DNA of 60,513 bases from an uncultured Acidimicrobiaceae bacterium (GCA_964501055.1 CAZCRP010000001.1:1-60513); one strand, 5' to 3'. Numbered from the stretch's first letter, positions 10,891 to 27,603 are shown. Numbers and translations are program-made. The notes: generated from the sequence alone by a model not told the origin.

Positions 10891-11361
10891 TCAACGCACC
10901 GCGATGATCGCTTCGACCTCGACTGGTGTGCCGAGCGGCAGCTCCGACATGCCGACCGCGGATCGCGCGTGTGTTCCTGCATTGCCGAGAATGTCCCGGA
11001 ACACCTGTGACGCGCCGTTGGCGACCACGTGCTGTTCCCGGAACCCGGGTGCACTGGCCACGAACACGGTCAGCTTGACGACCTGTTCCACTTCGGCGAG
11101 CGACCCGAGCAGTTCCTGAGTTCGCCCGAGCAGGTTGATCGCGCACTGGCGGGCGCATGCCTGGCCCGTTTCCACGTCGACGTCGTCGCCGAGACGACCG
11201 ACCGCCATCAGCTCTGAGCCGCGGAATGCGACCTGGCCCGAGAGTACGAGCAGTCGATCGTGGAGGACTGCGGGTCGCACGGTGGTGTCGGGCCCAGGTG
11301 CGGCGCTGAGAACGGGTTCGAGCGCAACGAAGGCCGCGTCACGGTCATGATTGTCGGTCAT
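10891..11361 (-). CDS. RidA/YjgF-family protein (copy 1)
   Basis: 156 aa. Contains LVLSGQVA...VKLTVFV...VEVEAIIAV. The ATGA overlaps the MlrC-like stop at 11358. Confidence 0.8.
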   Translation of the reverse strand: MTDNHDRDAAFVALEPVLSAAPGPDTTVRPAVLHDRLLVLSGQVAFRGSELMAVGRLGDDVDVETGQACARQCAINLLGRTQELLGSLAEVEQVVKLTVFVASAPGFREQHVVANGASQVFRDILGNAGTHARSAVGMSELPLGTPVEVEAIIAVR

Positions 11362-12869
11362 CGGTCACTCCGATCGGTTGTGGCGGGGTGGTACTCGGCT
11401 TCAGGCTCGAAGGGGAACATCGGCCGCCGACGGTGCCGGTACTCGAGCGAGGAGAGGTCTGCGCTTGTGCATCCCGGCGTGTTCAGCCAGATCATTTCCG
11501 CTGCGATCGGCTCGAACGCGCCACGCGGGGAGTGCACGCCCTTGGCGACGATGATCGGTTGGGTGTGAGGGTTGATGCCGACACTGATCAGCTGCTGAAG
11601 GCTCGGATTACCTGCTGGAAGGCTGGTGAGCATGAGTGTGTGACCGTCTTCGGTGTGGACGACGGCTCTCAGCCCGACGTCGAAGAAGCGGAACCCGCCG
11701 TGCGTCGCACCCGGATCCTCGAAGCGGCCGCTGTCGAGGACCCGAACGACTCCGCGGATGGACACGGGCGAGCCGTGCAGGTCGTCGGTCTTGCCTCCAA
11801 CCTCGAGTTCCACGGTTGCGCCGACCCCGGCGACAGCACATGCGGCGACAGCTTCCGGGTCACAGAGGGACTGGAACAGGTCGCGCACGCCCAACCGCTG
11901 TGCGGCGGCGAGGACGTGGGTCGAATCCCCGGGGCTGCCCCCACCGACGTTGTCGCCGACGTCGAGCAGTACGACGGGATGATTCGTGGCAGCCGCGGCG
12001 TGGAGGAGGGCCTCGTCGATATCGGTTCCGTCGCCGGTCATATCGTCGCGGACATCCCAGGCGGCAGACGCCATCTTCTGGGCGATGTCTGTTGCGAGCA
12101 CCTCGTCGCCGTCGGTGATGGCTATGAAGGCCATCCCCACTTCTTCGACATCGGCGTATGGGAACCCTTCGGCGACGCTCACCGACAACACGCCGGGCCG
12201 TTTCCCCTGCTCGGCGGCAAATGCGACCAGTTCGCGCATCGGGGAGTCGCTAGTTCCCTGACGCAGGATGTTGATCACGAGCGGAGGCATCTCCAGTGCC
12301 TTCACCGGTCGGATCTCTCCACGCACGGTGCGGATGATCAACTCGGCTGCCAGTCTCGCCCGAGGACGCGGGTCGAGGTGCGGATTGGTCATGTAGGTGT
12401 TGATGATCGTTGCGTTGTCGACCATCGCCGACGAGATGTTGGCGTGCATGTCGAGCGACACGCCGACTGGGACGTCTGGTCCGACCAGTTCGCGCACCCG
12501 CCGCAGGATCTCGCCGTCGGCGTCGCGGTGGGCTTCGGACACCGCTGCCCCATGAAGCGCGAGCAGCACGGCGTCCCATGGTCCCTGCTCACGTAGTGCA
12601 TCGAGCAGTGCTCCCACCATCGTTTCGAACGCTTCTTCGGTGATGGCGTTCATCGGTGTCAGTCGATAAAACAGCAGCGGTACGACGTCGACGTCCGGAT
12701 GAGCGTCGCCGGCTTCGAGGTAGCCGCCAAGGGTGGCTTGGGATGTGGCGAACTCCCTGACGAGATCATCGCCTTCGACCGGCCCGGCCGCCAACCACTT
12801 GTCGAGACTGGCCGGAACCGGCGAGTACGTGTTGGACTCGTGGCTGAGCCCGAGGGTTGCTATCCGCAT
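11358..12869 (-). CDS. M81-family metallopeptidase, MlrC-like (intact copy 2)
   Basis: An internal ATG at 12869 is preceded by AAAGGA. The protein begins MRIATLGLSHESNTYSP and contains LHGA, VGGGSPGDST and IVAKGVHSPRGAF. Confidence 0.85.
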   Translation of the reverse strand: MRIATLGLSHESNTYSPVPASLDKWLAAGPVEGDDLVREFATSQATLGGYLEAGDAHPDVDVVPLLFYRLTPMNAITEEAFETMVGALLDALREQGPWDAVLLALHGAAVSEAHRDADGEILRRVRELVGPDVPVGVSLDMHANISSAMVDNATIINTYMTNPHLDPRPRARLAAELIIRTVRGEIRPVKALEMPPLVINILRQGTSDSPMRELVAFAAEQGKRPGVLSVSVAEGFPYADVEEVGMAFIAITDGDEVLATDIAQKMASAAWDVRDDMTGDGTDIDEALLHAAAATNHPVVLLDVGDNVGGGSPGDSTHVLAAAQRLGVRDLFQSLCDPEAVAACAVAGVGATVELEVGGKTDDLHGSPVSIRGVVRVLDSGRFEDPGATHGGFRFFDVGLRAVVHTEDGHTLMLTSLPAGNPSLQQLISVGINPHTQPIIVAKGVHSPRGAFEPIAAEMIWLNTPGCTSADLSSLEYRHRRRPMFPFEPEAEYHPATTDRSDR

Positions 12870-12912
12870 GTTCGTCCTTTCGTGGGAGATGTGTCTCGAA
12901 GGATCCGGATGG

Positions 12913-13704
12913 TCACCAGATCGACCACCCGCCGTCGACCACGAGGTTGTGGCCGGTGATGAAACGTCCGGCATCGGATGCGAGGAGCAGCACCGCCCCC
13001 TTCATGTCCTCAGGGACGCCCATCACACCGAGTGCATTTCCGTCGACGAGACGGCGTACGAACTCCGGGTTCGCGTCGGGCTTCGGCACATGTCCTGGGC
13101 TGATGCAGTTGACTCGGACGCCCGACCGTCCGAACTCGGCGGCGAGGTTCCGAGTCAGTCCGATGATCGCTGCTTTCGATGTCTGGTAGGCGAGGCTCGA
13201 GCGCTTTTTCATGTCGAGCCCGGCGTAGAGGCGAGGGTCGGCGGCCAGGGAGCCATGAACCGAGGACACGGTGATGATCGAACCTGAGTGGCGAGGAAGC
13301 ATGTAGCGGGCAGCGGCATTGGCGGTGGTGATGGTTCCGAGGAGATGGGACTCCCATGTGGCGCGGACGGCATCCAGATCGGTGTCGGGCGGGAACGAAC
13401 TCTCGGCGTTGGCGCCGGCATTGCACACCGCGATGTCGACAGGGCCGGCTTCGGAGGCGATATCGGAGAGGGCGGTGTCCACGCGCCTGGGATCGGTGAT
13501 GTCCATCTGCACCGCTTGGCACCATCCTCCGTTGTCGCGGACTGCAGCAGCCGTCTCCTCGATGAGTTCCGGCCGTCGTCCGCCGACGAACGTCCTGGCT
13601 CCGTGCGCTGCGAGTCCTTCGGCCATCGCCCGCCCCAGGTGGGTGCCGCCCCCTGTGACGAGCGCAACACGGTCGGTCAGGTCGAACATCGAGGCGTCGG
13701 TCAT
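12913..13704 (-). CDS. SDR-family oxidoreductase
   Basis: TGGGTHLG cofactor motif, YQTSK catalytic motif and NAG. Confidence 0.85.
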   Translation of the reverse strand: MTDASMFDLTDRVALVTGGGTHLGRAMAEGLAAHGARTFVGGRRPELIEETAAAVRDNGGWCQAVQMDITDPRRVDTALSDIASEAGPVDIAVCNAGANAESSFPPDTDLDAVRATWESHLLGTITTANAAARYMLPRHSGSIITVSSVHGSLAADPRLYAGLDMKKRSSLAYQTSKAAIIGLTRNLAAEFGRSGVRVNCISPGHVPKPDANPEFVRRLVDGNALGVMGVPEDMKGAVLLLASDAGRFITGHNLVVDGGWSIW

Positions 13705-14543
13705 TGTCGCCTTCCTTTCGGTGGGTAAGGGCCTTCATAGCCGAGCATTCGTGAGGCCCGCTCGGCGGAGGCAATCACATGAGCGGCGATCGAGGCTTCC
13801 TCCTCGACGAATCGACCGGCCGGCAGCGAGGTGCCGTAGGCGCCGTAGGGTCGGCCGTCGGAATCGACGATCACGGCGCCTATGCACGAGACACCGGTGG
13901 TGTACTCCTCGCGGTCGATGCCGTAGCCGCGCCGGCGAGTGGACTCGAGTTCTTCGAGTAATCCTCCCCAGGTCGTGATCGTGTTCGGGGTCAGGGCCTC
14001 GAATGTGCGGGTCTCGAAGAATTCATCGAGGGACTCCGGGGGGACATGCGCGAGGTAGGCCTTCGCCGAGGCTCGAATGTGAGTGTGGCCGGTATATCCG
14101 ACGGTCAGGCTGCCCACTCTGAGCATGTTGGTCCCTTCGAGCAGCCCGACGATTGGCAGGTCGGCGCTCCGACGGATGGTGATGTAGACGGTCTCACCCA
14201 GTTCCTGATGCAGGCCGCGCAGGATGTCGAGGAGCTCAGGCGACGGAGCCACGGTGGTGTCGTAACGGTCCGTGAGGTAGCCGACCCTGGTGCCGAGCAC
14301 GTACCGGCCGCCGGGGACTCTGTGAACGTATCCGGCGTTTTGGAGGGTTCGCAGGATCTGGTAGCACGTGCCGAGGTTGATCTCGAGCGCGGCAACGAGG
14401 GACTTGGCAGTTGCGTGGCCGCGTTCCATGGCGACCTTCTCGAGAACCTGGATACCTCGATTCAGCGTGAGGAGCAGGCCAGGAGTGCGGTCGCTCGGCT
14501 CCTTTGCCGGTCCTGCATTGGTGCCAGACATCGTCCTTCTCAC
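13701..14543 (-). CDS. IclR-family transcriptional regulator (copy 1)
   Basis: wHTH region LEINLGTCYQILRTLQNAGYV plus an effector domain. Clear paralogue of 42799..43611. The start could be GTG 14543 or ATG 14531. Confidence 0.85.
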   Translation of the reverse strand: MRRTMSGTNAGPAKEPSDRTPGLLLTLNRGIQVLEKVAMERGHATAKSLVAALEINLGTCYQILRTLQNAGYVHRVPGGRYVLGTRVGYLTDRYDTTVAPSPELLDILRGLHQELGETVYITIRRSADLPIVGLLEGTNMLRVGSLTVGYTGHTHIRASAKAYLAHVPPESLDEFFETRTFEALTPNTITTWGGLLEELESTRRRGYGIDREEYTTGVSCIGAVIVDSDGRPYGAYGTSLPAGRFVEEEASIAAHVIASAERASRMLGYEGPYPPKGRRQ

Positions 14544-14813: not shown

Positions 14814-16871
14814 ATGGTCGATCGCACGCAGCTCGAGACGCCGATCTTCGAGTTCGTTGTCATGGCGGACACGCATTACGTCCTGCCCGAGAAGTCGAAT
14901 ACCGGCGAGTTCGAGACTCGTCGCTATCAGACCGCCCGAATCGGCCAGGCTGTCGACCTCTCTCGTCACCTCGATCCGAAGTTCGTGATCCACCTCGGTG
15001 ACCTGGTCCAGGAGTTCCCGGGTACGTCTGACTTCGCGGAGTCACTCCGGCAGGCAAAAGACCAACTCGACGCGCTCGGCATCACCATCCACCACGCCGC
15101 AGGAAATCACGATGTCGGAGACAAGCCGGATCCGACGACTGCGGCGCCCTGGACCACGGATGACTTCCTCGACTACTACCACGGGCACGTCGCGCCGTCG
15201 TGGTTCGACTTCACGGAAGGCGACGTGCACTTCGTGTTGCTCAACACGTCGGTGATGAACAACACCGCCCTCGCCGCCGAAGCCGAGCAGTGGCAATGGC
15301 TGGAGGCGACGTTGCGGGCGCATGCGGAGATGCGAACCGTGATTGGATATCACATCCCGGCCTATGTGATGGATGATGGCGAGCCGTCGCTCGGCCATTA
15401 CGACAACATCGCCGAGCCTGCCCGTTCCCGCCTCCTCGACCTGCTCACCCGGCATCAGGTGGAGAGGGTGTTCCAGGGCCACAGCCACTTCGCATTCGTC
15501 AATGAGCGCGCCGGCACCCGGTTTCATGTGCTCCCGTCGACTTCGACGACGCGTCCCGGGTTCTGTGAGTTGTTCTCGAGTGCGGCGCCGCCCGCCCAGG
15601 GTCACAACGACGCCGACAAGTTGGGCATGTTCCTCGTCCGTGTCTACCCAGATGACATGCGGATCAACTTCCTCCGCACGCAAGGGGCGGCGGCCACCAC
15701 GCCACCCGGGGAGGGGCGGGAGATCCTCCTCACCGGCACGCCGAGAGAACTGTCGACATCCCAGCTCGGAGTGACGTTGCGACATCCTCTTGCCAACTAC
15801 GCCGACGTGCCGATCACGTTTCCGTCGACGGTGCGCCAGCCGGTCAGGAACGACTACCCGCTCCTCGCGCTCGTCGAGATGGGAGCACAGTCTGTTCGGA
15901 TTCCCGGCAGCGAACTCGACGAAGACCGCCTCCGATCACGACACGAACTCCTCCGCTCCGAGGGATTGGCGACTGTGGCGACGTACCTGTGGGAGGCGGG
16001 GTCGGATCTGCGCGACCGGGTTGCGGCCGTCGCATCCGACGTCGACGGCGTCGAAATTCAGATCCCCGGAGACGTCGAGCCAGGTGAGGATGTGCTCGGC
16101 TCCCTCGGTGCGCTCTCGGAGGCTGCCGCGGGTGCGCTTTCGATCTGCCAGGTCACACTCGCGCACATCAAAGGCGTGCAGATGCATCGGCGACAGCGAT
16201 TCGGTTACAAGCCCGCTGCGCTTCGACCGCTCGATACCGTGCTGTCGGCAGGATCGGCGCCGGTCGATCGGGCGGTCTGTCACATCGACGACCGCGACGA
16301 ACTGTGGGATCTCGTGGATGTGCTGAGCGAAGGCCTATCAGCCGTGGCTCGCGTCGATGTGGTGATTGAAGTAGGGCTGCAGGGACTCGCCGCGGACGCG
16401 TGGCTCGCAGCCGAAGCCATGGTTGCCCTCGCGCCCTTCGCACACACCCGGATCTTTGTCGACACCCTCGTCGAACTCGACCGGACGATGGACCTGCGAG
16501 GCGGGCTTCTGACCCGCATGTGCAATCCCAGACCATCGTTCCGAGTCCTACAGACCCTCAACACGGTTCTGCACGGACGGCTCGTCTGCGGGGCGGTCAC
16601 GAAAAGCCGCCGCACACGGTTCGGAGTCTCAGCGGAGTTCGGTGACGGGGGCGCCCTGCTCCTGGTGCTTCCAGGGGTCGACCCTGATGGGCGGGCGGAA
16701 CTCGACACGCAACTGGGTCAGCTGGGTCCCGAGGGTGGTGACACCCCGACTGTCCGGTACGAGTTGTCCACGGGTTGGGTGCACCGCGGCGTTGCGTCGC
16801 GGGCGGTGTTCGCTCCGGCAGACCCCACGGCTCCCTATGTCGTCCAGACCGGGGCTCGGTCGAGCGGGTGA
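14814..16871 (+). CDS. Metallophosphoesterase domain fused to an uncharacterised C-terminal region of about 380 aa
   Basis: The N-terminal roughly 290 aa carry the calcineurin-like motifs MADTHY, LGDLV, GNHD, GYHIP and GHSHF. I could place no motif in the remaining residues. Confidence 0.75.
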   Translation: MVDRTQLETPIFEFVVMADTHYVLPEKSNTGEFETRRYQTARIGQAVDLSRHLDPKFVIHLGDLVQEFPGTSDFAESLRQAKDQLDALGITIHHAAGNHDVGDKPDPTTAAPWTTDDFLDYYHGHVAPSWFDFTEGDVHFVLLNTSVMNNTALAAEAEQWQWLEATLRAHAEMRTVIGYHIPAYVMDDGEPSLGHYDNIAEPARSRLLDLLTRHQVERVFQGHSHFAFVNERAGTRFHVLPSTSTTRPGFCELFSSAAPPAQGHNDADKLGMFLVRVYPDDMRINFLRTQGAAATTPPGEGREILLTGTPRELSTSQLGVTLRHPLANYADVPITFPSTVRQPVRNDYPLLALVEMGAQSVRIPGSELDEDRLRSRHELLRSEGLATVATYLWEAGSDLRDRVAAVASDVDGVEIQIPGDVEPGEDVLGSLGALSEAAAGALSICQVTLAHIKGVQMHRRQRFGYKPAALRPLDTVLSAGSAPVDRAVCHIDDRDELWDLVDVLSEGLSAVARVDVVIEVGLQGLAADAWLAAEAMVALAPFAHTRIFVDTLVELDRTMDLRGGLLTRMCNPRPSFRVLQTLNTVLHGRLVCGAVTKSRRTRFGVSAEFGDGGALLLVLPGVDPDGRAELDTQLGQLGPEGGDTPTVRYELSTGWVHRGVASRAVFAPADPTAPYVVQTGARSSG

Positions 16872-17039
16872 GGTCGCGTGTCTGCCCGCGCTCAGGACAA
16901 TGCTCATGATAGCTGAAATAAGTTCAGATTATTGGCAAGACGTTGAAGATCTGGCACTCTTGGTGCGCGGACGCGCATTGGCCATCCAGTCTTTTGTGCG
17001 AACTGCCATGGAGCAACAACCCTCGGAGGTCGTGACCCG

Positions 17040-18050
17040 ATGCTGATGCGAATGAACCAGGCGATCGCGGCTGGCCTGCGTGACGAGATGCGCGCCGACC
17101 CCTCCGTGGTGGTCTGGGGAGAGGATGTGGCCGAAGCCGAGGGTGTGTTCAAGGCCACGGTGGGGCTCTACGAAGAGTTCGGAAGTCGTGTGAGGGACAC
17201 TCCGATCTCCGAGATGGGCTTTCTCGGCGCAGCCGTCGGTGCGGCGGCCACCGGACTGCGGCCGGTAGTCGAGATCATGTTCGTCGAGTTCCTGGGGGTG
17301 GCCCTCGATCAACTCGTCACCGAGGCCGCCTTCTACCGCTACCTATCAGGCGGGGAGATCGGGGTCCCGCTGGTGGTCCGTGCCTCCGCCGGTGGAGGAA
17401 TCGGGTTCGGTGCCCAGCACTCCCAGACACTGGAGCGATGGCTGATCGGGAGTCCCGGAATCAAGGTCGCCATGCCGTCTGGCTCGCGCACCGCATATGG
17501 GCTGATCCGTGCGGCGGTGCGCGACGATGACCCAGTCGTCGTCCTCGAACCCCGTGCCCTGTACGCGGAGCGCGAGGAGTTCGATCCGTCCGACGATCAG
17601 ATATTCTCGCTTGGGGTGGGCGAGCTGCGGCAGCGTGGCGACGACGTCACGCTGGTGACGTTGGGAAGCACCGTGGGTGTGGCCGAGGCAGCTGCTCGTG
17701 CCGCTGGATGGACTGCCGATGTGATCGACCTGCTGACCATTCAGCCTTGGGATCGAGAACTCGTCTTCGAGTCCGTGTCCAAGACGGGAAGGCTCGTCGT
17801 CGTCGAAGAGAGCCCCTGGTCGGGCGGCTGGGGAGCTGACATCGTTGCCGCTGTCGCCGAAGAACTACTCGACGATCTCCTGGCGCCAGTCGTCCGGGTT
17901 ACGACTCCTGACGTCCCCGTGCCCTTCGCTCCGGACCTCGAAGCGCGATACCTGCCCTCCTCGGACGAAGTGGTCGCCCAGGTCGACTCCTTGCTGGCGA
18001 CGGGCCGATCTCTAGGCGCCTGGTGGGGGAGGGAGGGAGTGAGCGTATGA
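17040..18050 (+). CDS. 2-oxoacid dehydrogenase E1 component, beta subunit
   Basis: MNQAIAAGLRDEM...GEDV...DTPISE...GLRPVVEIMF, followed by a transketolase C-terminal-like end. GGAGG lies 10 nt upstream of the start. Confidence 0.9.
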   Translation: MLMRMNQAIAAGLRDEMRADPSVVVWGEDVAEAEGVFKATVGLYEEFGSRVRDTPISEMGFLGAAVGAAATGLRPVVEIMFVEFLGVALDQLVTEAAFYRYLSGGEIGVPLVVRASAGGGIGFGAQHSQTLERWLIGSPGIKVAMPSGSRTAYGLIRAAVRDDDPVVVLEPRALYAEREEFDPSDDQIFSLGVGELRQRGDDVTLVTLGSTVGVAEAAARAAGWTADVIDLLTIQPWDRELVFESVSKTGRLVVVEESPWSGGWGADIVAAVAEELLDDLLAPVVRVTTPDVPVPFAPDLEARYLPSSDEVVAQVDSLLATGRSLGAWWGREGVSV

Positions 18051-19036
18051 CTGTGGAACTCGAACGTCGAGAAGCGTTGAGCGACAGGGTCGCACAGCTC
18101 GACCGGATGCTCGAGATTCGCCGGACCGAGGAGTGCATCCAGGCGATGTTTGCCGAAGGGCTCGTGAAGGGCACCACCCACACCTGCCAGGGGCAGGAAG
18201 CGGTGTCCGTCGCGATCGCCGCGTCGACCACGCCCGAGGATGTGGTCACATGTACCTACCGAGGACATGGACATGCGCTCGCACTCGGGATGACTCCTAC
18301 ATCCGTGATGGGTGAGGTGCTCGGCAAGACGGTCGGTTCGATCGGCGGCGTTGGCGGATCGATGCACCTGTCCGATCTGTCGATTGGTCTCCTGCCGACC
18401 TTCGCCATCGTGGGCGCCGGCATCCCGGTTGCAGTCGGGGCGGCGATCGGGCGTCGGGCAGCCGGTACGGACGGGATCGGTGTCGCCGTGTTCGGTGACG
18501 GCGCCACCAACATCGGCGCATTCCACGAGGCGCTCAACCTGGCCAGCGTATGGAACGTGCCCGTCGTCTTCGTGTGCGAGAACAACCTGTATGGCGAGTA
18601 CAGCCGCATCGATCGGACGACTCCTTTCGAGGATCTGTATCGGCGGGGGGCCGCGTACGACATTCCGTCCCGGGCCGTCGACGGCCAGGACGTCGATTCT
18701 CTCATCGAGGAGCTGTCGGTCGAGTTCGAGGCCGCCAGGTCAGGGCCTGGTCCGCGCTTCGTCGAGGTCAAGACGTACCGCTTCGTGGGACACTCCCGCA
18801 GTGACACTGCGCCCTATCGTCGCGCCGGCGAACTCGATGAGTGGCTGGAGCGGGATCCGATCGCCATCCTCGGCAGCCGGCTCGTCGAGGAGGGTGCGCT
18901 CTCCGCGGACTCCCGAGCCGCGCTCGATCGCGACGTCACCGGCCGGGTCGAAGAGGCAATGGTGACAGTCAAGGCCGCCGAAGGGCCCCAGGTCCCAGCG
19001 ATGTTCGCCAACATCTACGCGGCACCCTCCGACTGA
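18047..19036 (+). CDS. 2-oxoacid dehydrogenase E1 component, alpha subunit (TPP-binding)
   Basis: ATGA overlap with the beta subunit. TPP motif FGDGATNIG...CENNLYG, plus YRGHGH. Confidence 0.9.
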   Translation: MTVELERREALSDRVAQLDRMLEIRRTEECIQAMFAEGLVKGTTHTCQGQEAVSVAIAASTTPEDVVTCTYRGHGHALALGMTPTSVMGEVLGKTVGSIGGVGGSMHLSDLSIGLLPTFAIVGAGIPVAVGAAIGRRAAGTDGIGVAVFGDGATNIGAFHEALNLASVWNVPVVFVCENNLYGEYSRIDRTTPFEDLYRRGAAYDIPSRAVDGQDVDSLIEELSVEFEAARSGPGPRFVEVKTYRFVGHSRSDTAPYRRAGELDEWLERDPIAILGSRLVEEGALSADSRAALDRDVTGRVEEAMVTVKAAEGPQVPAMFANIYAAPSD

Positions 19037-19275
19037 TGGCCAGGACACGTGTCAAGCTCCCGAACTTTGGGGACTCGGTGGATGCCGCGACACTCGTCGA
19101 GTGGCACGTGGGCACCGGTGATCGTGTGGAGCTCGAGCAAGTGCTGCTTACCGTTGAGACCGACAAGGTGGACGCCGATGGTCCGTCGCCCGTCGGAGGA
19201 GTGGTCGTCGAACTCCTTGCCGAGGCGGGGACGGAACTCCATGCCGGCGATCCGATCTGTGTGATCGAGACATGA
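19036..19275 (+). CDS. Stand-alone lipoyl/biotinyl-attachment domain protein (79 aa)
   Basis: TGATG junction with E1 alpha. The sequence VEWHVGTGDRVE...LLTVETDKVDADGPSP contains the ETDK lipoyl-lysine motif. There is no E2 catalytic domain. Confidence 0.8.
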   Translation: MARTRVKLPNFGDSVDAATLVEWHVGTGDRVELEQVLLTVETDKVDADGPSPVGGVVVELLAEAGTELHAGDPICVIET

Positions 19276-20012
19276 CCGACGTCGTGATCGTCACCGGTGC
19301 AGCCAGCGGAATCGGACCGAGTGTTGCGCGCGTCGTCCTGGAGCGTCACCAGACGACGCGAGTGGCGCTCGTGGATCGCGACATCGACATGCTCGAGCGG
19401 ACTACTGCCGCAATAGGGGAACGTGCGAGGGCGCATCTGTGCGACGTCTCGGATCCCGATGCGGTGGCGTCGATGGTCCCGGCGGCGGTAGACGATGATC
19501 GTCTCGTCGGACTGGTCAACTGCGCCGGTAGCCATCTCGATCGTCCGAGTCTCGATCTCACCCCTGCCGAGTGGCACGCGGTGTTGGGTGTACACCTCGA
19601 TGCCACGTTCTACATGTGTCAGGCGGCGGCCCGGCTGATGGTGGAGGGTGGGGGCGGCGCCATCGTCAATTTCTCGTCGGTCGCCCAGTCCTTCGGGTGG
19701 CCGCGACGACTTCCCTACGCCGTCGCCAAGGCCGCTGTCGGGGCGCTCACTCGCACGTTGGCGGTGGAGTGGGCACAGCACGGTATTCGCGTGAACGCCG
19801 TTGCTCCCGGATACGTGAACACACCGAGCATTGTGGTTGCGATCGAGCAGAAGATCTTCGATGCAGAATCCCGCCGGCTCGGCCATGCGCTCCAGCGGTT
19901 CGCCGAGCCGGTTGAGCTCGCTGAGGTGGTCGAGTTCCTCCTGTCGGATCGAGCATCGTTCATGACCGGGGAGGTCGTGAACGTCGATGGTGGATTCTCG
20001 GTGACAAAATGA
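19272..20012 (+). CDS. SDR-family oxidoreductase
   Basis: ATGA overlap with the upstream gene. TGAASGIG and YAVAKAAV motifs. Confidence 0.85.
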   Translation: MTDVVIVTGAASGIGPSVARVVLERHQTTRVALVDRDIDMLERTTAAIGERARAHLCDVSDPDAVASMVPAAVDDDRLVGLVNCAGSHLDRPSLDLTPAEWHAVLGVHLDATFYMCQAAARLMVEGGGGAIVNFSSVAQSFGWPRRLPYAVAKAAVGALTRTLAVEWAQHGIRVNAVAPGYVNTPSIVVAIEQKIFDAESRRLGHALQRFAEPVELAEVVEFLLSDRASFMTGEVVNVDGGFSVTK

Positions 20013-20025
20013 GGAGTGATCAGCC

Positions 20026-20436
20026 ATGAGCAACTACGTCGTGAGGGACCTCGATGTGCTCGTCGAAGGAGCGCTGGCGGTGCTCGACTCTGGTGTCGGC
20101 ACGGACAGGTTCCCCCTCATCGACGGCCGAGTTGTTGCCGTGCAGGCCTCGCCCGACCTTGAGTCGTCGGAGGACATGGCGTGGGGCATCTCTGCCCTGC
20201 CTGCGGGGTGCTCGGTGCCGGAGCACACGCATCGCGCCGAGGAGTTCGCGATGATCGTGCGCGGCTCCGGAACGATCGTGATCGAAGACGAGGAGATCCT
20301 GGTGTCGGAGGGATCCGTTGTCGTGACCCCTGCCCATCTGCGACATCGCACGACCGCCGGACCTGATGCTCCGATGGTTGTGTACTGGGTGTACGGACCT
20401 GCCGGCTCGGAAGCTCGCTGGCTCGACAAGAAGTGA
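20026..20436 (+). CDS. Cupin-domain protein
   Basis: Cupin motif 1 GCSVPEHTHRAEEFAMIVRG and motif 2 GSVVVTPAHLRH. GAGGAG RBS upstream. Confidence 0.7.
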   Translation: MSNYVVRDLDVLVEGALAVLDSGVGTDRFPLIDGRVVAVQASPDLESSEDMAWGISALPAGCSVPEHTHRAEEFAMIVRGSGTIVIEDEEILVSEGSVVVTPAHLRHRTTAGPDAPMVVYWVYGPAGSEARWLDKK

Positions 20437-20447
20437 AAGGTGAACGT

Positions 20448-20834
20448 ATGGACGTGCAGAGGGTGCCTTCGGAGAGGGCGTGGTCCCATGTCGGATACTC
20501 GCGCGCCGTGAGGGTGGGCGACGTGATCGAGGTCGCCGGGACCACAGCATCTGGGCCGGGCGGAGCCATCATCGCTCCTGGCGACATGTACGAGCAGGCC
20601 AAGTACTGCATCGATGTGATCAGGAAGGCGATCGAGGAGCTCGGCGGTCGCGTCGAGGATGTCGTACGTACCAGGGTCTTCCTGACGGACATCTCCCAGT
20701 GGGAGGAAGCCGGGCGCGCTCACGGAGAGGTGTTCGGCGAGATCCTGCCGGCGTCGGCGTTCGTCGGCGTCAGTGAGTTGCTCCATCCCGATCTGATGAT
20801 CGAAGTCGAGGCCACCGCCATCGTCCGGAGTTGA
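20448..20834 (+). CDS. RidA/YjgF-family protein (copy 2)
   Basis: Contains VIEVAGTTA...VVRTRVFLTD...MIEVEATAIV. The ATG is preceded by AAAGGTGA. An alternative GTG at 20433 overlaps the cupin stop. Confidence 0.8.
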   Translation: MDVQRVPSERAWSHVGYSRAVRVGDVIEVAGTTASGPGGAIIAPGDMYEQAKYCIDVIRKAIEELGGRVEDVVRTRVFLTDISQWEEAGRAHGEVFGEILPASAFVGVSELLHPDLMIEVEATAIVRS

Positions 20835-20938: not shown

Positions 20939-22417
20939 TCAGTCTTCCCAGGGTTCTTCGAGGTCGGCGTCCCATGGCCACAGGGGGCGGGGGATGCGGG
21001 TGTACGGGAGTGCCGTGAGGTCGCTGCCTGCGGGCCCGGGCACGTCGACGTCGATACAGGTGGCGATCTTCTCGTAATACTCTCGATAGGCCCCGGCCGA
21101 CTTGGGTTGCACGATCTTGGCGAGGCGCGGATCGAGTCCCACGCTCAGATACGCCTCGTAGTCGACCATACGGGGGCGGTGCGTCGTCACCATGATCGCG
21201 ATGCTCCCGATGTCGAGAACGGCGGTCGGCCCCATCTCTAGCCACCGGATGCCTCCGTAGTGGTTGAGGTAGTGGCCGTCGGTGAGTGTGCGGACCGTCC
21301 CTGAGACCTTCACGGGGGAGTAGAACTTCGGGTTGTACTTGCCGCCGAGTGTGGTGGTGACGGTGCCGCCGATTCCGGCGGCGATGCACTCTGCCACCGC
21401 TTCGCCGTCGCGCACCATGAGAATGCACGGCGCTGTCAGATCGGTTCTCGCGAGAAGGGCCTTGAGCAGCAGGTTTCCGTCACCGAGGCCGCCGGCGGTG
21501 GTGCTGTCCGCGCCCTCCGACAATGCGAATACGCCGTCTACGGCGAGGGCGGTGTCTATGGCCTCGTCGACGTCCGTCTTCTCGAGCAGGTACTCGTCGC
21601 GATGGTCCCAGGCCGTGCGGGCGATCGAATCTGCGGTCTCCTGCCCGAGGTCCTGGGCGGCGTCGGTGACGATCACCGTCGACCAACCCAGTTCGGAGAT
21701 GTCCAGCCACGGTTGGGTGCAGAACGCCGTCGCAGCCAAGATGCGGGGGTCCTCTTCGGCCTCGTGGAGGCGATCGATCACGCGCTTGTTCGGGAGCACG
21801 CGATCGTCGTGGGTCTCAGATGTCGTCAGCATGCGGTACTTCCGCATCGAGACCTTGGGGTGGACCTCGCCACGGATCGTTCGAACCAGGATTTCCATCG
21901 CTGCCTTCCCCGTGCGGCGGAGGTCGACATGGGGACAGGTCTGGTAGCCGACGATGATGTCAGCGCTTGCCGCCATGCGGGCGGTCATGTGGGTGTGGAG
22001 GTCGAATGTCGCTGCGATCGGCATCTCAGGACCGACCACCTCGCGCACCCTGGCGAGGATCTCCCCTTCGGCGTCGTCGAGGCTCTCGGTCACCATCGCG
22101 CCGTGGAGTCCGAGCATCACCCCATCGATGGAGTCCAGATTCGCCTTCACACCTTCGATGAGCATTCCGACGAAGTGCTCGAAGGCAGCATCGGCGACGA
22201 CAGGACCCGAGTGGGCCATCGCGTCGAACAGCGGGACGAGTTCGACGCTCTCGGCATCAGCGATATCGAGATAGCCGTCCATTTCGCGGTTGCCTGCCCG
22301 ACGAAGGACGTCTGCGCCCTCCGCGATCCCGTTCAGCTCGAAGTCGGCCAGCGACGTGACTCCCGGGACGAAACTGTGGCTCTCCTGACGAAGCAGCGCG
22401 ACGAGGACGCGTTCCAT
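20939..22417 (-). CDS. M81-family metallopeptidase, MlrC-like (intact copy 3)
   Basis: An internal ATG at 22417 is preceded by AGGAGA. The protein begins MERVLVALLRQESHSFVP and contains LHGAMV, GGLGDGN and IVQPKSAGAYREYY. Confidence 0.85.
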   Translation of the reverse strand: MERVLVALLRQESHSFVPGVTSLADFELNGIAEGADVLRRAGNREMDGYLDIADAESVELVPLFDAMAHSGPVVADAAFEHFVGMLIEGVKANLDSIDGVMLGLHGAMVTESLDDAEGEILARVREVVGPEMPIAATFDLHTHMTARMAASADIIVGYQTCPHVDLRRTGKAAMEILVRTIRGEVHPKVSMRKYRMLTTSETHDDRVLPNKRVIDRLHEAEEDPRILAATAFCTQPWLDISELGWSTVIVTDAAQDLGQETADSIARTAWDHRDEYLLEKTDVDEAIDTALAVDGVFALSEGADSTTAGGLGDGNLLLKALLARTDLTAPCILMVRDGEAVAECIAAGIGGTVTTTLGGKYNPKFYSPVKVSGTVRTLTDGHYLNHYGGIRWLEMGPTAVLDIGSIAIMVTTHRPRMVDYEAYLSVGLDPRLAKIVQPKSAGAYREYYEKIATCIDVDVPGPAGSDLTALPYTRIPRPLWPWDADLEEPWED

Positions 22418-22506
22418 TGTTCTCCTATCCGATTCGTGCCGCGCAGCATACCCATAACCCATATTCGATATCACGAACGAGTCGGTCGCCTACTCAAAGG
22501 GGATGG

Positions 22507-24117
22507 CTACGCCCTCGAATAGGCCACCGCACCGCCCAGCCGGCGCGGATCGGCCCCACCCCGGAAGTCGCCGTTCTCCACCATCGCCATCTGCACCGAG
22601 CCGAATGCCGGTTCGTAGTTGTGGAACGAGTGGACCAATTCCATACCTCGTGATCGGAGCTGCTCGACAGTCTTGGACGAGACACGCAGTTCCGCGTACA
22701 CCGGCTGGCCCTCACTGTGCAGGCGCGGTGCCGAGACGGCTTCCACCGGCGACATCCCGAAGTCCACGACGTTGCTGATCGCCTGCGCCACGGCGGAACT
22801 GATCGACCAACCGCCGGGGGCGCCGACCACCATCCACGGGGTCCCGTTCTTGCGGATGATCGTCGGAGAGACCGCGCTGGCCCGTGCTCTGCCCGGCTCG
22901 TAGGAGTTGGGACGACCAGGCACCGGATCCATCAGGCTCACACAGTCGTTCCAGGTGAACCCGGTGCCCGGGATCACGACGCCGGAGCATGTCGTCAGGG
23001 TCTGTGTGATCGACGCGCAGTTGCCTTGCTCGTCGATGATGGAGAGGTGGGTGGTGTCGCCCGGCATGTTGAGCTGGCGCCGGGTGGGGAGCTCGCCTAC
23101 GCGGATGCGGTCGGCGATTCGCGCTGCGTGCTCGTCGGACAGCAGTTCCTCGGTGGGAACCGGATTGAACGCGGGGTCGCTGAGGTGGTTGCCACGAGTC
23201 ACACCGACCCAGCTGAGGGCGGCCCCGACGATAAAGCAGTGGTCCGGTCCGCCGTGCTCCATAGACGACAGATCGAACTGGTTCAGGATGTTCAGTGCTT
23301 GCAGTGTGAGAAGTCCGCCACCCGGTACAGGCGACGAATGCACCTCAACGTGTCGATAACGCACGCGCAGCGGCGGCTCGATCGAGGGGCGGTAGTTCGC
23401 GAGATCCTCGCGAGTGACGAACGCTCCGTTGGCCTCGAAGTCGGCGATGATCGTGTCTGCCAGCCCTCCTCGGTAGAAGTCCTCGGCGCCATGGGTAGCG
23501 ATCCGTTCGATGGTGGCGGCCTGGTCCGGGTTCACGTAGTGCTCACCGGTTCGTTTCAACTCTCCGTCGGCGTTGTGGAACAGGACGCGGGCAGCGGGGG
23601 TGGCGGCGTACTTCTCCCGCGGATGGGGCATGCCTGGGAGGCTCGGCTGGTGGCCGCGATTGGCGACGTATTCGGGCATCGGGAAACCCTGCCGGCTCAA
23701 CTCGATGCTCGGCGCGAGGAGTTCGGACATCGATAGGGTGGAGAAACGACGGTGAATCTCGTCGAAGCCCGCGACAGTGCCCGGTGTCATGATGGAGCCG
23801 TAGCCGATCATGTTGCGCTGGTCGGCGAACAGGGCGAACCGCCATATCTCCGTGTAGCCCTCGATGTCGTCGACCCACATGTCGGGCGCCATGCGGGCAC
23901 CGATCCGTGGCCAGAAGCCGATGTGTTCGAACCGGTCGGCTGCAGCGTGATACAAGGTGGCTGCTCCCCAGCCGCCGAGTCCGCACATGAAGGGGTCCGT
24001 CACGATCTGCATGTATCCGGTGGCGATGGCCGCGTCGAACGCATTTCCGCCGCGTTCGAGGACCGCGGCGCCGGTCTCGACGGCGGCGGGCTGTGGGGCA
24101 ACGACGACGCCCTTCAT
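22507..24117 (-). CDS. ggt: Gamma-glutamyltransferase family protein
   Basis: The ATG at 24117 is preceded by AGGAAA. Begins MKGVVVAPQPAAVETG. Autoprocessing/nucleophile motif GDTTHLSIID, plus PGGWSI. Confidence 0.9.
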   Translation of the reverse strand: MKGVVVAPQPAAVETGAAVLERGGNAFDAAIATGYMQIVTDPFMCGLGGWGAATLYHAAADRFEHIGFWPRIGARMAPDMWVDDIEGYTEIWRFALFADQRNMIGYGSIMTPGTVAGFDEIHRRFSTLSMSELLAPSIELSRQGFPMPEYVANRGHQPSLPGMPHPREKYAATPAARVLFHNADGELKRTGEHYVNPDQAATIERIATHGAEDFYRGGLADTIIADFEANGAFVTREDLANYRPSIEPPLRVRYRHVEVHSSPVPGGGLLTLQALNILNQFDLSSMEHGGPDHCFIVGAALSWVGVTRGNHLSDPAFNPVPTEELLSDEHAARIADRIRVGELPTRRQLNMPGDTTHLSIIDEQGNCASITQTLTTCSGVVIPGTGFTWNDCVSLMDPVPGRPNSYEPGRARASAVSPTIIRKNGTPWMVVGAPGGWSISSAVAQAISNVVDFGMSPVEAVSAPRLHSEGQPVYAELRVSSKTVEQLRSRGMELVHSFHNYEPAFGSVQMAMVENGDFRGGADPRRLGGAVAYSRA

Positions 24118-24601
24118 GACATTTCCTGTGTGTGTAGCTGCCACTCACTGGTGGTGATCCGGTCTCCGAGCACCGAGGGATCGAAGGTTGCACCGATGCC
24201 GGGTACCGGAGTCAGGGTGAGTTCGCCGTTGGCGATTTCTTCGGCCGGGCTCACAACGGTCCTGCGATCGATCGGCTCCCCGAAGATGGTCGCCGATCCG
24301 ACGGCCGCGATGCCGGCGACGAGCCTGCGCAGGAACGACTCGGCGCGGCTCCCGCCATGACCGAGATGGTCGGTGATCCGTACGTCCAGTGCGTCGAGGT
24401 CGTCGCCAGACGGTTGGTTGCGAGGAGTGGTGCGACCGCCGAGATCACGGCTGCTCCGGCCTCCGAATCGCGGAGATCGGAGCACTCGCCCAGCCCTGTG
24501 AAACCGTCGGCCGTCGTGACCTCCGTCACAAACCACGTCGTTCGGTGGCTCACCGCGATCTGGTGGAGACGGACGGATTCGATGTATGGCGCAGTCGTCA
24601 T
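24114..24601 (-). pseudogene. Enolase-superfamily (mandelate racemase/muconate lactonizing) remnant with its middle deleted
   Basis: The N-terminal IESVRLHQIAVSHRTTWFVTEVTTADGFTGLGE and the C-terminal GELTLTPVPGIGATFDPSVL lie in two frames only about 490 nt apart. Both ATGA junctions, at 24598-24601 and 24114-24117, are intact. Confidence 0.5.
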
Positions 24602-26178
24602 GTCCGTCGGAGTACTCGTCCGGGCCGATCGGCAGACAGCGAGCCGTTCTCGACCATCACGGTCCCGGCCACCGCAACGATGTCGATTCCGGTCGGAGCG
24701 CCGGGTTCCTCGCCGAACTCCGCGTTGTCGCTTACCGTGGCGGGATCGAAGACGACGAAGTCGGCAACGGCTCCCTCGCGCAGCACGCCGCGGTCGGCGA
24801 GGCCGAGACGCCGCGCCGGTTCTCCCGTCATCTTATGAACGGCGTCGGCGAGCTGCAGGACACCCCTGTCACGCGTGTAGCGGCCGAGCACGCGGGGGAA
24901 GGTTCCGAAACTCCGGGGGTGCGGTCGTGCCGTCGGCTGGTGCAGCGGAATCGCGTTTCCGTCTGACCCCACAACCGAGAGCGGGTGGGCGAGGAACGTC
25001 TCCATGTCTTCCTCGGTCCGGTAGAAGAGGACCACCTGCATTTCGTTCCCGTATCGCTCGCAGAGTCGGATGGTGTGCTCGTACGGGTCGACGTCGGCTT
25101 CCGCGGCGAGGTCGGCAAGCGACGAGGCCACCCCGTACCCGTCGGGGGTGTGGCTCACCACGAAGCGGTCCCACAGCCAAGGAATGCCGCCAAACCATCC
25201 GGCGGTCATGTCGGAGAGTGCGCGATCCCGTTCGGCGGGATCGGCCATCCGCCGGCGGAGCTCCTCGGTTCCTCCGGCCTGGACCCACGGCGGGAGGTAT
25301 TGGGTGAGGGACGAGGACGAGGCGTGATACGGGTAGACGTCGAAGACGATGTCCACCCCGTCGTCACGCGCGTCCTCCAACATTCCCATGAGTTCTGCGC
25401 CTGTACCCCACCGGCTGGGATTGTTGATCGCCATGTGGCTGAACTCCACGGTGACCCCGGTTTCGCGTCCGAGGTCGATGGCTTCTCCCACCGAACCGCG
25501 TTCGAGTGTCCCGCTGACACGGGAGTGCGTTGCATAGAGGGCACCTCGCGCGGCGAGTACCCGAGCGAGGGCGGCCACCTCGTCGAAATCGCCGTAAGCG
25601 CTGGGCACGTGGGTGAGGCCGGTGCTCATCCCGAACGCCCCCTGGTCGAGGGCCACGGTGAGATCGCGTTCCATGCGGGCGAGTTCGTCTGCGGTCGGCG
25701 GCCTCTGATCGACGCCCATCGCTGCTACCCGGAGGGTGCCGTGGCCGGCGAGCGGGACGACATTGATCGCTAGTCCAGCGGCGGCGAGTGCCTCGGCATA
25801 GCCATCGAGGTCGGTCCACCACGGCACGATCGAGGCGGTGGCCCTGGCGAGATGGTCGGCGTGGAGATCGAGCCTGGACGGTTCGATCGGGAAGGCTGCG
25901 AACGAACAGTTGCCGACGACCTCGGTGGTGACGCCCTGACGGAGCTTGCTCTCGCCGGTGCCGTCCTCGACGAGCGTCAGATCCGAATGGGTGTGGATGT
26001 CGATGAAACCGGGGGCCAGGACCCGCCCGGCAACATCGATGGTTCGAGCGGCCGCCGCGTCTTCCGGAATCGTCCCGACGGCGGTGATGCGACCGTCGCG
26101 AGCGCCGAGATCAGACGCCCGCGCAGTCCGACCGGTGCCGTCGATCAGAGAGGCGTTGCGGATCACCAGATCGAACAT
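24598..26178 (-). CDS. N-acyl-D-amino-acid deacylase (D-aminoacylase) family amidohydrolase, copy 1
   Basis: 526 aa. Contains MFDLVIRNASLIDGTG, APGFIDIHTHSD and QGVTTEVVGNCSFAAFP. Confidence 0.9.
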   Translation of the reverse strand: MFDLVIRNASLIDGTGRTARASDLGARDGRITAVGTIPEDAAAARTIDVAGRVLAPGFIDIHTHSDLTLVEDGTGESKLRQGVTTEVVGNCSFAAFPIEPSRLDLHADHLARATASIVPWWTDLDGYAEALAAAGLAINVVPLAGHGTLRVAAMGVDQRPPTADELARMERDLTVALDQGAFGMSTGLTHVPSAYGDFDEVAALARVLAARGALYATHSRVSGTLERGSVGEAIDLGRETGVTVEFSHMAINNPSRWGTGAELMGMLEDARDDGVDIVFDVYPYHASSSSLTQYLPPWVQAGGTEELRRRMADPAERDRALSDMTAGWFGGIPWLWDRFVVSHTPDGYGVASSLADLAAEADVDPYEHTIRLCERYGNEMQVVLFYRTEEDMETFLAHPLSVVGSDGNAIPLHQPTARPHPRSFGTFPRVLGRYTRDRGVLQLADAVHKMTGEPARRLGLADRGVLREGAVADFVVFDPATVSDNAEFGEEPGAPTGIDIVAVAGTVMVENGSLSADRPGRVLRRT

Positions 26179-26634: not shown

Positions 26635-27603
26635 TCAGAGAGTCGACATGGGCGCGGTGGCCTGGATGAGCGCCCGGATGTAGCCGTAGGCGTAGAGACG
26701 GCCCAGCATCGTGTAACCGGGTGACCCCTCGTCCTCGCCGATGAGCTGGGGCACGTGGTCGGGCCGCACCGGGCCGTCGAAGCCAACCTCGCGATAGGCG
26801 CGCATGGCCTCGACCATGTCGGTCTGCCCGTTGTCCTGCCACGTTTCGGTGAACCGCTCCGGCGTTCCCTTGACATCCCTGAAGTGGACGTAGGCGATGT
26901 GTTGTCCCAGTCGGCGGATCGTGGCGGGGATGTCGATCCCCATCTCCGAGAATGTGCCCTGGCAGAAACCGATCGCATTGGCCGGGGACGGGACGAGTTC
27001 GACGAGTCGTTCGAATGCGGCGACGTCATACATGATCCGATCGTTGCCGAGCAGCGCGGGGAGAGGCGGGTCGTCGGGGTGCATCGCCATTGTCACCCCG
27101 GCCTCTTCTGCGACGGGGACCATCTCGGTCAGGAATGCTTCGAGATTTGTCCACAGTGCGTCGCGGGACATGCCGGACTCGGGTGGAGTCTCATGGTACG
27201 ACTCCCGTCCGGGGATGCCGGCGTTCCCCACCTCTGCGAGATCGAACGCCGTCACCTTGGCTCCGCCCCGCTCAGGAGCGTCGACGCGAGTTCGGATCCA
27301 GTCGGTTCCAGCCATGAAGTTGTAACACACCAGGGGAATCCCGATTTCGCCGAGATGTCTGACGAGTGCCTTCATCTGGGTCATCTCGGTGCCGTCGTCA
27401 CGTCCGAGCTTGATGGCGTGGATGGGGAGACCTCCCTCGATGACCCCGACCCGGAGCCCGAACGACTCGATCCTGGCCTTGGTCGCGTCGAGTTCGGACA
27501 GGTCCGGCCCAGGATTCCGGACCACGATCTCGTCCACCCCCGTTTGTGCAGCGAGCGTGAGGTTCAGATCGGAGAGGGGAGTCAGGACGGATGCGAGCTT
27601 CAT
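26635..27603 (-). CDS. uxuA: Mannonate dehydratase (UxuA family)
   Basis: Contains LVCYNFMAGTDWIRTR, YVHFRDVKG, RPDHVP and GYTMLGRLYAYGY. Confidence 0.8.
   Translation of the reverse strand: MKLASVLTPLSDLNLTLAAQTGVDEIVVRNPGPDLSELDATKARIESFGLRVGVIEGGLPIHAIKLGRDDGTEMTQMKALVRHLGEIGIPLVCYNFMAGTDWIRTRVDAPERGGAKVTAFDLAEVGNAGIPGRESYHETPPESGMSRDALWTNLEAFLTEMVPVAEEAGVTMAMHPDDPPLPALLGNDRIMYDVAAFERLVELVPSPANAIGFCQGTFSEMGIDIPATIRRLGQHIAYVHFRDVKGTPERFTETWQDNGQTDMVEAMRAYREVGFDGPVRPDHVPQLIGEDEGSPGYTMLGRLYAYGYIRALIQATAPMSTL

Follow-up and report, generated by a model that had tools for sequence, protein, structure and literature searches.

The 60,513-bp stretch analyzed here (CAZCRP010000001.1; hereafter the window) is a complete contig of a metagenome-assembled genome (MAG) of the Acidimicrobiia with approximately 65% G+C. 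At positions 17040–20834, it carries a six-gene operon that probably encodes a lipoate-dependent 2-oxoacid dehydrogenase module without an E2 core. The thiamine pyrophosphate (TPP)-dependent E1 would load a free lipoyl carrier, which is encoded as a separate protein of 79 amino acids directly downstream of the two E1 genes. We hold this reading with moderate confidence.

Organization of the operon

The six open reading frames (ORFs) are located on the plus strand and were assigned by Pfam to E1beta, E1alpha, the lipoyl protein, a short-chain dehydrogenase/reductase (SDR), a cupin, and a Rid protein (Table 1). The start codon of E1alpha overlaps the stop codon of E1beta (ATGA, 18047–18050), and the two following junctions (TGATG, 19034–19038; ATGA, 19272–19275) are likewise found in the sequence exactly as listed in a preliminary description of this DNA. 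The cupin gene is preceded by a 13-bp gap with the ribosome-binding site GAGGAG. At the cupin/Rid junction, the genes overlap if Rid starts with the alternative GTG at 20433 (133 amino acids) and are separated by 11 bp if it starts with ATG at 20448. The G+C content at third codon positions of the operon genes (0.71–0.80) is of the coding type, and the gene calls of the public collection give 79 amino acids for the lipoyl protein, 329 for E1alpha, and 128 for Rid. The operon is intact, and its genes are translationally coupled. Independent assemblies show the same gene order and again a lipoyl gene standing alone; the layout is therefore neither due to chance nor an assembly artefact. The architecture noted in the preliminary description, six genes with beta before alpha and no E2 core, is thus real and conserved in relatives.

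Table 1. Position, strand, and assignment of the operon genes and associated features of the window
Feature	Position	Strand	Assignment
M81/MlrC-like peptidase	11358–12974	−	Pfam; divergent, conserved beside the operon
Second SDR	12913–13704	−	Pfam; divergent, conserved beside the operon
IclR-family regulator	13701–14543	−	Pfam IclR_C, HTH_IclR; candidate regulator of the operon
AT-rich conserved element	16901–16936	+	approximately 100–140 bp upstream of E1beta; candidate promoter/operator
E1beta	17040–18050	+	336 amino acids, first operon gene; Pfam Transket_pyr (4e-37), Transketolase_C (3e-33)
E1alpha	18047–19036	+	329 amino acids; Pfam E1_dh (5e-66)
Free lipoyl-domain protein	19036–19275	+	79 amino acids; Pfam Biotin_lipoyl (1e-18, full model length)
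Classical SDR	19272–20012	+	246 amino acids; Pfam adh_short_C2 (4e-55)
Single-domain cupin	20026–20436	+	136 amino acids; Pfam Cupin_2 (1e-14)
Rid (YjgF/UK114) protein	20448–20834	+	128 amino acids; Pfam Ribonuc_L-PSP (4e-24)
UxuA-like dehydratase	26635–27603	−	Pfam; candidate producer of a 2-keto-3-deoxy acid substrate
MR_MLE enolase-superfamily enzyme	27855–28964	+	Pfam; candidate producer of a 2-keto-3-deoxy acid substrate

The free lipoyl-domain protein

The Biotin_lipoyl match covers residues 5–77 of the 79-amino-acid protein, which contains no linker, subunit-binding domain, or catalytic domain. Its ETDK motif includes the predicted lipoyl-lysine K44 (codon 19165–19167). In the AlphaFold2 (AF2) model, whose fold takes up the whole chain (predicted local distance difference test score, pLDDT, 93.6), K44 is located in the turn between the strands 36–41 and 46–50, and the model resembles E2 lipoyl domains with TM-scores of 0.87–0.94. 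Motif and model show the flattened beta-barrel of lipoyl domains, in which a beta-hairpin presents the predicted lipoyl-lysine of the DK motif at its tip. An identity as glycine-cleavage H protein was not supported by Pfam, which returned no GCV_H match and only Biotin_lipoyl and a sub-threshold Biotin_lipoyl_2. The protein also matches positions 3–76 of the 464-amino-acid NCBIfam model NF008854. A cysteine at position 75, invariant in close relatives, was dropped as a candidate functional residue because the more distant members of the clade have G, V, or A there.

In a search of 5.8 billion proteins, all 20 homologues retrieved are 78–80 amino acids long. Differences between the lipoyl genes of relatives fall mainly on the third codon position (38–40 of approximately 64), a pattern indicative of purifying selection. 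A profile search with the lipoyl family in 1.84 billion representative proteins was dominated by E2s with several lipoyl domains, and the frequency of the free form is not readable from it. Five of the 78- to 80-amino-acid homologues (P0005, P0010, P0013, P0017, and P0018) are named "E2 component (dihydrolipoyl transacylase/acyltransferase)" by JGI, although they lack a catalytic domain, so that automated annotation obscures an architecture without E2.

The E1 subunits

Both E1 subunits retain their catalytic motifs. The translation of E1beta contains PISE with the TPP-activating Glu and QHSQ with the active-site His, and that of E1alpha the TPP motif GDG...ENN, the loop YRFVGHSRSD, and GGSMH. 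The pair has the features of the TPP-dependent E1alpha and E1beta of canonical 2-oxoacid dehydrogenases. Its best matches in the PDB are the human pyruvate dehydrogenase (PDH) E1alpha and the E1beta proteins of Thermus and Bacillus, the closest solved relatives of E1beta being those of T. thermophilus and Pyrobaculum. Against the NCBIfam models for PDH E1beta, the window protein scored 289–293 bits, which is below the cut-offs.

In an alignment of 79 E1alpha sequences, the catalytic residues were at least 97% conserved. Three positions, L80, P117, and T118, are specific for the clade described below; most other sequences have Arg at position 80, and others have Gly at 117 and Ser at 118. All three are located in loops beside conserved catalytic motifs. 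An apparent fusion of E1alpha and the lipoyl domain (P0133, 448 amino acids) was rejected as an artefact: the contig is ridden with frameshifts, the lipoyl match lies in another frame, and the adjoining E1beta is split.

E2 and E3 in the contig and in related loci

A six-frame scan of the 60,513-bp contig revealed neither the motif of the E2 catalytic center (DHRxxDG) nor that of the E3 redox center (CxNxGCxP[ST]K), and only a single lipoyl-lysine motif. When six canonical E2 proteins from related loci were compared with the contig using tblastn, only the lipoyl region was matched. Among the remaining contig genes, Pfam detected no 2-oxoacid_dh domain, E3-type protein, acyltransferase, or disulfide reductase. 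An E2 in which lipoyl domain, subunit-binding domain, and acyltransferase core are fused was not found on the contig.

The motif scan and Pfam bear out the earlier statement that the window encodes no dihydrolipoamide dehydrogenase (E3), but this absence carries no weight. None of the approximately 99 related loci contains the E3 motif, not even the 30 that encode a canonical fused E2, so that the lack of an E3 close to the operon is the rule. A regular E2 or E3 directly downstream, which was to be looked for in close relatives, is likewise absent there. An E2 catalytic domain (sucB/dlaT-like) near the module was detected solely in L022 and L023 (loci are given by L numbers), approximately 9 kb away on the other strand and adjoining lipB-lipA, which is the usual actinobacterial housekeeping arrangement. 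These genes show that the carrier genomes possess a predicted general E2, yet they provide no link to the module. Both loci are from Acidimicrobiia genomes and contain a long ORF in which LipB-like and LipA-like domains are combined (L022, 18415–20887; L023, 18560–20978), which may reflect a gene fusion or an ORF called too long; the E2 catalytic-domain gene beside it is cut by the end of the locus.

A distinct clade of beta-alpha loci

A scan with E1alpha of one genome per GTDB species yielded 80 loci, which were analyzed together with loci from an exact protein look-up. All loci with an E1alpha identity of at least 50% have the order beta then alpha. Neighbor-joining of 79 E1alpha sequences placed the 17 from beta-alpha loci in a single clade without intruders, separate from the alpha-beta loci. 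A hidden Markov model (HMM) scan detected a free lipoyl ORF of 77–82 amino acids in 18 of the 19 beta-alpha loci, some of which are duplicates; the exception is a 5-kb contig. Every lipoyl ORF found in beta-alpha loci stops 0–4 residues past the end of the domain, and the same distance was seen in 22 loci with a tblastn match. Among the alpha-beta loci, the HMM scan found 30 with a fused lipoyl domain, 31 without any within 10 kb, two with a free one (L061 and L066), and five that were cut or ambiguous. In the fused form, a protein of 335–464 amino acids with the motif SFDHRAxDG begins with the lipoyl domain.

Three alpha-beta loci, L061 (11815–12208), L066 (3275–3515), and L045 (11983–12274), also have a lipoyl ORF behind E1beta that is free or almost so; they belong to a betaproteobacterium, a Eubacteriales MAG, and a Spirochaetota MAG. 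Judging from these ORFs, the E2 core may have been lost more than once. The 31 alpha-beta loci without lipoyl domain or E2 within 10 kb, about half of the total (e.g., L039, L043, L051, L054, and L058, the latter from Streptomyces) are orphan E1alpha/E1beta pairs.

The E1beta-E1alpha-lipoyl triad was found in Acidimicrobiia and other Actinomycetota, in Candidatus Nanopelagicaceae, in two Mesorhizobium species, and in a MAG labeled as Proteobacteria. In Mesorhizobium, the lipoyl gene is located nearby on the other strand. A tblastn search of plasmids with E1alpha returned no member of the beta-alpha clade (top identity 43%).

Conservation of the gene order in relatives, proposed earlier as a check, extends to the full six-gene operon in L001, L005, L013, L009, and L093, down to an E1alpha identity of 64%. 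Beyond these loci, the neighborhoods differ, and nothing but E1beta, E1alpha, and the lipoyl protein is found throughout. The discharge and reoxidation of the carrier must therefore be either housekeeping functions or intrinsic to the module. In the Nanopelagicaceae, the triad is combined with cupin and Rid in a rearranged order, together with MR_MLE, IlvD/EDD, and a Dpp-type transporter. The proteobacterial MAG has the order E1beta-E1alpha-lipoyl-cupin-Rid-Iso_dh with overlapping stop and start codons, and its Rid is still 67% identical to that of the window. This proteobacterial module (L097) also contains two tandem, near-identical proteins of approximately 262 amino acids directly upstream of E1beta (4168–4959 and 4966–5754), which have no counterpart in the window or in L001–L092; the first of them gave no Pfam match.

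SDR, cupin, and Rid

The preliminary description regarded SDR, cupin, and Rid as partners of the module. This applies to the operon of the window and its close relatives but is not universal, as cupin and Rid accompany the triad in 5 of 16 lineages. The SDR is kept in the operon in L001, L005, L013, L009, L093, and L098 and is rearranged in L019. It reached the cut-off of no NCBIfam model, and its PDB relatives are generic; PDB and NCBIfam searches with the second SDR of the window also yielded generic matches only.

In the cupin, H67, H69, E73, and H107 are invariant among 32 homologues, forming a predicted His-His-Glu-His metal site, and the C-terminal motif YGPAGSExRW is conserved. A Foldseek search with the AF2 model (pLDDT 94.5) returned only generic monocupins (KdgF, DddK, TM1459, and ectoine synthase) and gave no functional assignment. 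Two of the three cupin homologue contexts adjoin E1beta-E1alpha-lipoyl, and the third (L098) is cut by the contig end.

The Rid protein belongs to the YjgF/UK114 fold, with 3i7t as its best PDB match, and scored 57 bits against TIGR00004 (cut-off 106). The conserved Arg of RidA (R105 in E. coli) is absent. PAS is aligned opposite PAR of PH0854 and 2cwj, which places a Ser at the catalytic Arg position, and this Ser is present in all eight orthologues. According to a survey of the Rid family, the Arg is essential for imine hydrolysis, the Rid4–7 subfamilies are without imine hydrolase activity, and about 10% of the RidA-like proteins carry Ser at this position (PMC4433059). The earlier suggestion that a RidA of the operon processes an imine-derived 2-oxoacid is weakened, since a conserved Ser replaces the Arg needed for imine hydrolysis.

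Gene neighborhoods and candidate substrates

Neighboring genes were counted in 16 non-redundant beta-alpha lineages and 44 alpha-beta loci; the queries were proteins from beta-alpha loci, and the following contrasts are thus biased upward. SDR genes were found in 14/16 beta-alpha lineages versus 6/44 alpha-beta loci, MR_MLE in 11/16 versus 5/44, family III CoA-transferases (CoA_transf_3) in 6/16 versus 0/44, Amidohydro_2 in 5/16 versus 0/44, UxuA in 4/16 versus 0/44, and Iso_dh in 4/16 versus 1/44. Taken together, 15 of the 16 lineages have a neighbor that would produce a 2-oxoacid (MR_MLE, UxuA, IlvD/EDD, or Iso_dh). Coenzyme A (CoA)-transferases or acyl-CoA ligases are located beside the module in 8/16 lineages, and GFO_IDH_MocA and AP_endonuc_2 genes are frequent neighbors as well.

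One type of lineage has a deoxysugar-type setting with a rhaM mutarotase, an MR_MLE dehydratase, Amidohydro_2, GFO_IDH, SDR, and a sugar ABC transporter. Elsewhere, the triad is found beside family III CoA-transferases, or with DMFase-like and DAP-dehydrogenase-like genes and a peptide-type transporter. In the window, Pfam identified UxuA-, MR_MLE-, and IlvD-type dehydratases, an FAH-family hydrolase, IclR regulators, and a Dpp-type ABC transporter among the remaining genes. A UxuA-like gene occurs near the operon again in L001, L009, and L093.

Proposed mechanism and alternatives

Starting from the gene content, the intact motifs, the lipoyl fold, the conserved layout, and the clade structure, all of which were established directly, we propose the following course of reactions. 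The heterotetrameric, TPP-dependent E1 would decarboxylate a 2-oxoacid, probably of the 2-keto-3-deoxy type and supplied by the dehydratases encoded nearby, and would reductively transfer the acyl group to Lys44 of the 79-amino-acid protein. The acylated lipoyl protein would act as a diffusible carrier comparable to the H protein in glycine cleavage. The acyl group would leave without a dedicated E2, and the dihydrolipoyl protein would be reoxidized by the general dihydrolipoamide dehydrogenase of the cell, encoded elsewhere. SDR, the metal-binding cupin, and the Ser-type Rid may act on the substrate or product in the version of the pathway present in this lineage. The loading of a free lipoyl carrier by E1, already suggested in the preliminary description, would fit the intact E1 motifs and the confident model of the lipoyl fold. 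We infer E3 recycling, the substrate class, and the release step.

For the release step, we have a slight and tentative preference for a free acid or a lactone over a transfer of the acyl group to CoA by the catalytic domain of a housekeeping E2, neither of which we consider probable. A CoA-independent release is favored because the known sharing of components involves no separate lipoyl protein and because CoA-transferases and acyl-CoA ligases are often located beside the module. The family III CoA-transferases nearby fit a product released as free acid, and Amidohydro_2, a family that includes sugar lactonases, could fit the release of a lactone. In its most specific form, the proposal would be an oxidative decarboxylation without E2 whose substrates are 2-keto-3-deoxy acids from sugar acids or amino acids. 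The acyl group would be released free of CoA, either through hydrolysis or through the lactonization of a thioester of the gamma- or delta-hydroxyacyl type, the general Lpd would recycle the carrier, and the cupin and the Ser-type Rid would be dedicated partners in some lineages. This combination as a whole is unlikely.

Several points speak against the E2-less module. The statement on the absence of E2 and E3 covers the 60.5-kb contig only, lipoylation and acyl loading are predicted from homology, and the upward bias of the neighbor contrasts has been mentioned above. The neighborhoods are heterogeneous, resembling peptide or D-amino acid utilization in the window, deoxysugar utilization in L007 and L095, and being rich in CoA-transferases in Mesorhizobium. 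In addition, close E1 homologues are named acetoin:DCPIP oxidoreductase subunit alpha by JGI.

The alternative that survives best is an ordinary complex in pieces, in which a housekeeping or unlinked E2 domain would discharge the carrier to CoA, a housekeeping E3 would reoxidize it, and the product would be an acyl-CoA as in PDH and the branched-chain 2-oxoacid dehydrogenase (BCKDH). Components are shared in trans in known systems: in corynebacteria, OdhA works with the lipoyl domains on AceF, and the human 2-oxoadipate E1 (DHTKD1) borrows E2o and E3. The module itself encodes no universal discharge enzyme, and an E2 catalytic domain does occur beside lipB-lipA at some 9 kb from the module in L022 and L023. 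However, this E2 was found in one lineage only and in the usual housekeeping arrangement. The lipoyl domains in the known cases of sharing are those on E2, and a dedicated free carrier across phyla suggests a different logic. With a CoA ester as the immediate product, the CoA-transferases and acyl-CoA ligases in half of the lineages would also be superfluous. A complex in pieces is therefore possible but in our view not probable.

The acetoin names of the E1 homologues point to a second alternative, an acyloin cleavage in which an alpha-hydroxyketone or diketone (for instance one that the SDR would form from a diol or sugar) would be split into an aldehyde and acyl-lipoyl without decarboxylation of a 2-oxoacid. 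The frequency of SDR genes near the module would agree with this, as would the GFO_IDH_MocA and AP_endonuc_2 genes, which are known from inositol and keto-sugar pathways. Furthermore, acetoin E1 proteins are the closest characterized relatives of OadhA2/B2 of Haloferax volcanii, a system similar to the one described here (PMC8305020). Yet the acetoin names rest on similarity, and the clade is distinct from the alpha-beta loci by its reversed gene order and the exchanges R80L, G117P, and S118T near the active site. An AcoC-type E2 is absent, and the most consistent neighbors are enzymes that make 2-oxoacids, all of which renders acyloin cleavage improbable. Finally, an artefactual origin of the short lipoyl ORF, be it the sequencing truncation that the preliminary description had named as a ground for refutation, a frameshift, or the decay of a full E2, can be dismissed on the basis of the constant lengths in beta-alpha loci and homologues, the stop codon overlapped by the next gene, the predominance of third-position substitutions, and the absence of E2-like sequence downstream in every frame; nothing in the data supports it, although frameshifted genes in one related contig (L096) show that such artefacts occur.

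Upstream region and putative regulation

The AT-rich element upstream of E1beta can be aligned across the window, L001, L005, L013, and L009, whereas the surrounding intergenic region is poorly conserved. It contains the loosely repeated pair TCAGAATA / TCAGATTA, approximately 22 bp apart. A scan of the upstream region for the sigma-70 consensus and scans for promoters, terminators, and inverted repeats around the operon revealed nothing above chance, and an Rfam scan of the whole window gave no match.

The gene of the IclR-family regulator is adjacent in L001, L005, and L013, located downstream of the operon in L093, and not adjacent in L009. In L009 and L093, the M81 peptidase and the second SDR lie directly upstream of E1beta, whereas in L001, L005, and L013 the IclR and phosphoesterase genes are located in between. 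The phosphoesterase gene (14814–16871, plus strand) encodes a protein of 685 amino acids with an N-terminal metallophosphoesterase domain (residues 14–225), whose approximately 450 C-terminal residues gave no Pfam or NCBIfam match. It lies between IclR and E1beta in L001, L005, and L013 only and is absent from L009 and L093.

Other genes of the contig

The contig encodes four paralogous M81/MlrC-like peptidases (156–1646, 11358–12974, and 20939–22474 on the minus strand; 29532–31046 on the plus strand), a gamma-glutamyltranspeptidase (22507–24144), and three amidohydrolases (24598–26178, 32197–33432, and 33429–35027). A D-Ser-dehydratase-like gene is located at 9503–10882 and the Dpp-type ABC transporter at 48945–55047. 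Based on this gene content, the contig looks like an island for the degradation of unusual peptides or D-amino acid conjugates. A second Rid-family gene (10891–11361, minus strand, 156 amino acids, Ribonuc_L-PSP and YjgF_endoribonc) is found beside the D-Ser-dehydratase-like gene, and in relatives, a PALP enzyme is also nearby. This combination of Rid and a pyridoxal phosphate (PLP)-dependent dehydratase is the classic pairing, and the second Rid is distinct from that of the operon. Two short ORFs comprise only fragments of an SMP-30/gluconolactonase (38376–38738, 120 amino acids) and a metallo-beta-lactamase (42434–42823, 129 amino acids); they may be pseudogenes or have mis-called starts.

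Comparison with known systems

To our knowledge, all characterized 2-oxoacid and acetoin dehydrogenase systems use the E2 core as scaffold and acyltransferase. PDH and BCKDH with heterotetrameric E1 have the E1 motifs, the lipoyl-lysine motif, and the lipoyl fold in common with the module. They differ in that the module includes neither an E2 core nor a subunit-binding domain, and in its scores below the NCBIfam cut-offs for PDH. The E1 of the acetoin system (AcoA/AcoB/AcoC/AcoL) is likewise a TPP-dependent heterotetramer and belongs to the same superfamily. Automated annotation names close homologues after this system, and acetoin systems often encode an SDR (butanediol dehydrogenase) alongside. 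There, however, acoA and acoB are followed by AcoC, an E2 with fused lipoyl domain, whereas the window has the reversed order, a free lipoyl protein, and no E2. In the alphaproteobacterial PDH, the lipoyl domain is fused to the N-terminus of E1beta (NF008854) and thus tied to E1 rather than E2, but a normal E2 is still present.

Trans-sharing as in OdhA/AceF and DHTKD1 likewise concerns an E1 without its own E2 and E3, with the difference that the lipoyl domains are tethered to E2. In glycine cleavage, the small, free lipoyl H protein is loaded by a decarboxylase, moves between enzymes that are not joined to one another, and is regenerated by the shared L protein/Lpd. The logic of a free shuttle is the same, and the likeness is functional only: the H protein belongs to the GCV_H family and the P protein is PLP-dependent, whereas the carrier of the window has an E2-type lipoyl domain (PF00364) and its decarboxylase depends on TPP. 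The "lipoyl carrier protein" LarG of Pelobacter was also considered but is GcvH-like and unrelated. The OADH complex has been described in PMC9367764. Five lipoate-dependent complexes have been characterized, in addition to the LbpA sulfur-oxidation system (PMC6067878). If the proposal is true, the module would be a further kind of lipoate-dependent system, in which the swinging arm also acts as a diffusible shuttle in 2-oxoacid metabolism, from the streamlined freshwater Nanopelagicaceae to Mesorhizobium, and it would represent an unrecognized fate of 2-keto-3-deoxy acids. Pipeline labels such as "E2 dihydrolipoyl transacylase" for the 79-amino-acid protein or PDH/acetoin dehydrogenase for E1 mislead metabolic reconstructions.

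In the literature, we found neither a characterized bacterial lipoyl domain that is stand-alone, unattached, or orphan and works with an E1, nor an account of the bacterial beta-alpha-lipoyl clade or its association with cupin and Rid. The closest published case is oadhA2-oadhB2-oadhL of H. volcanii (HVO_2595–2597), in which the E1alpha and E1beta genes are followed by that of a lipoyl-only protein of 86 amino acids. Pyruvate and 2-oxoglutarate are excluded as substrates of oadh2, and the short lipoyl protein occurs with oadh2 only, while oadh3 has dsa2 (PMC8305020). Adjacent E1alpha and E1beta genes, a lipoyl-only protein of approximately 80 amino acids, and the lack of an E2 in the cluster are features of both systems, which we liken on the basis of the published description. 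The archaeal cluster differs in its order alpha then beta, and no cupin, Rid, or SDR is reported with it. With its bacterial and, in the case of Mesorhizobium, culturable hosts, the module described here would provide a handle on the problem of the Haloferax system, which has been open since 2002.

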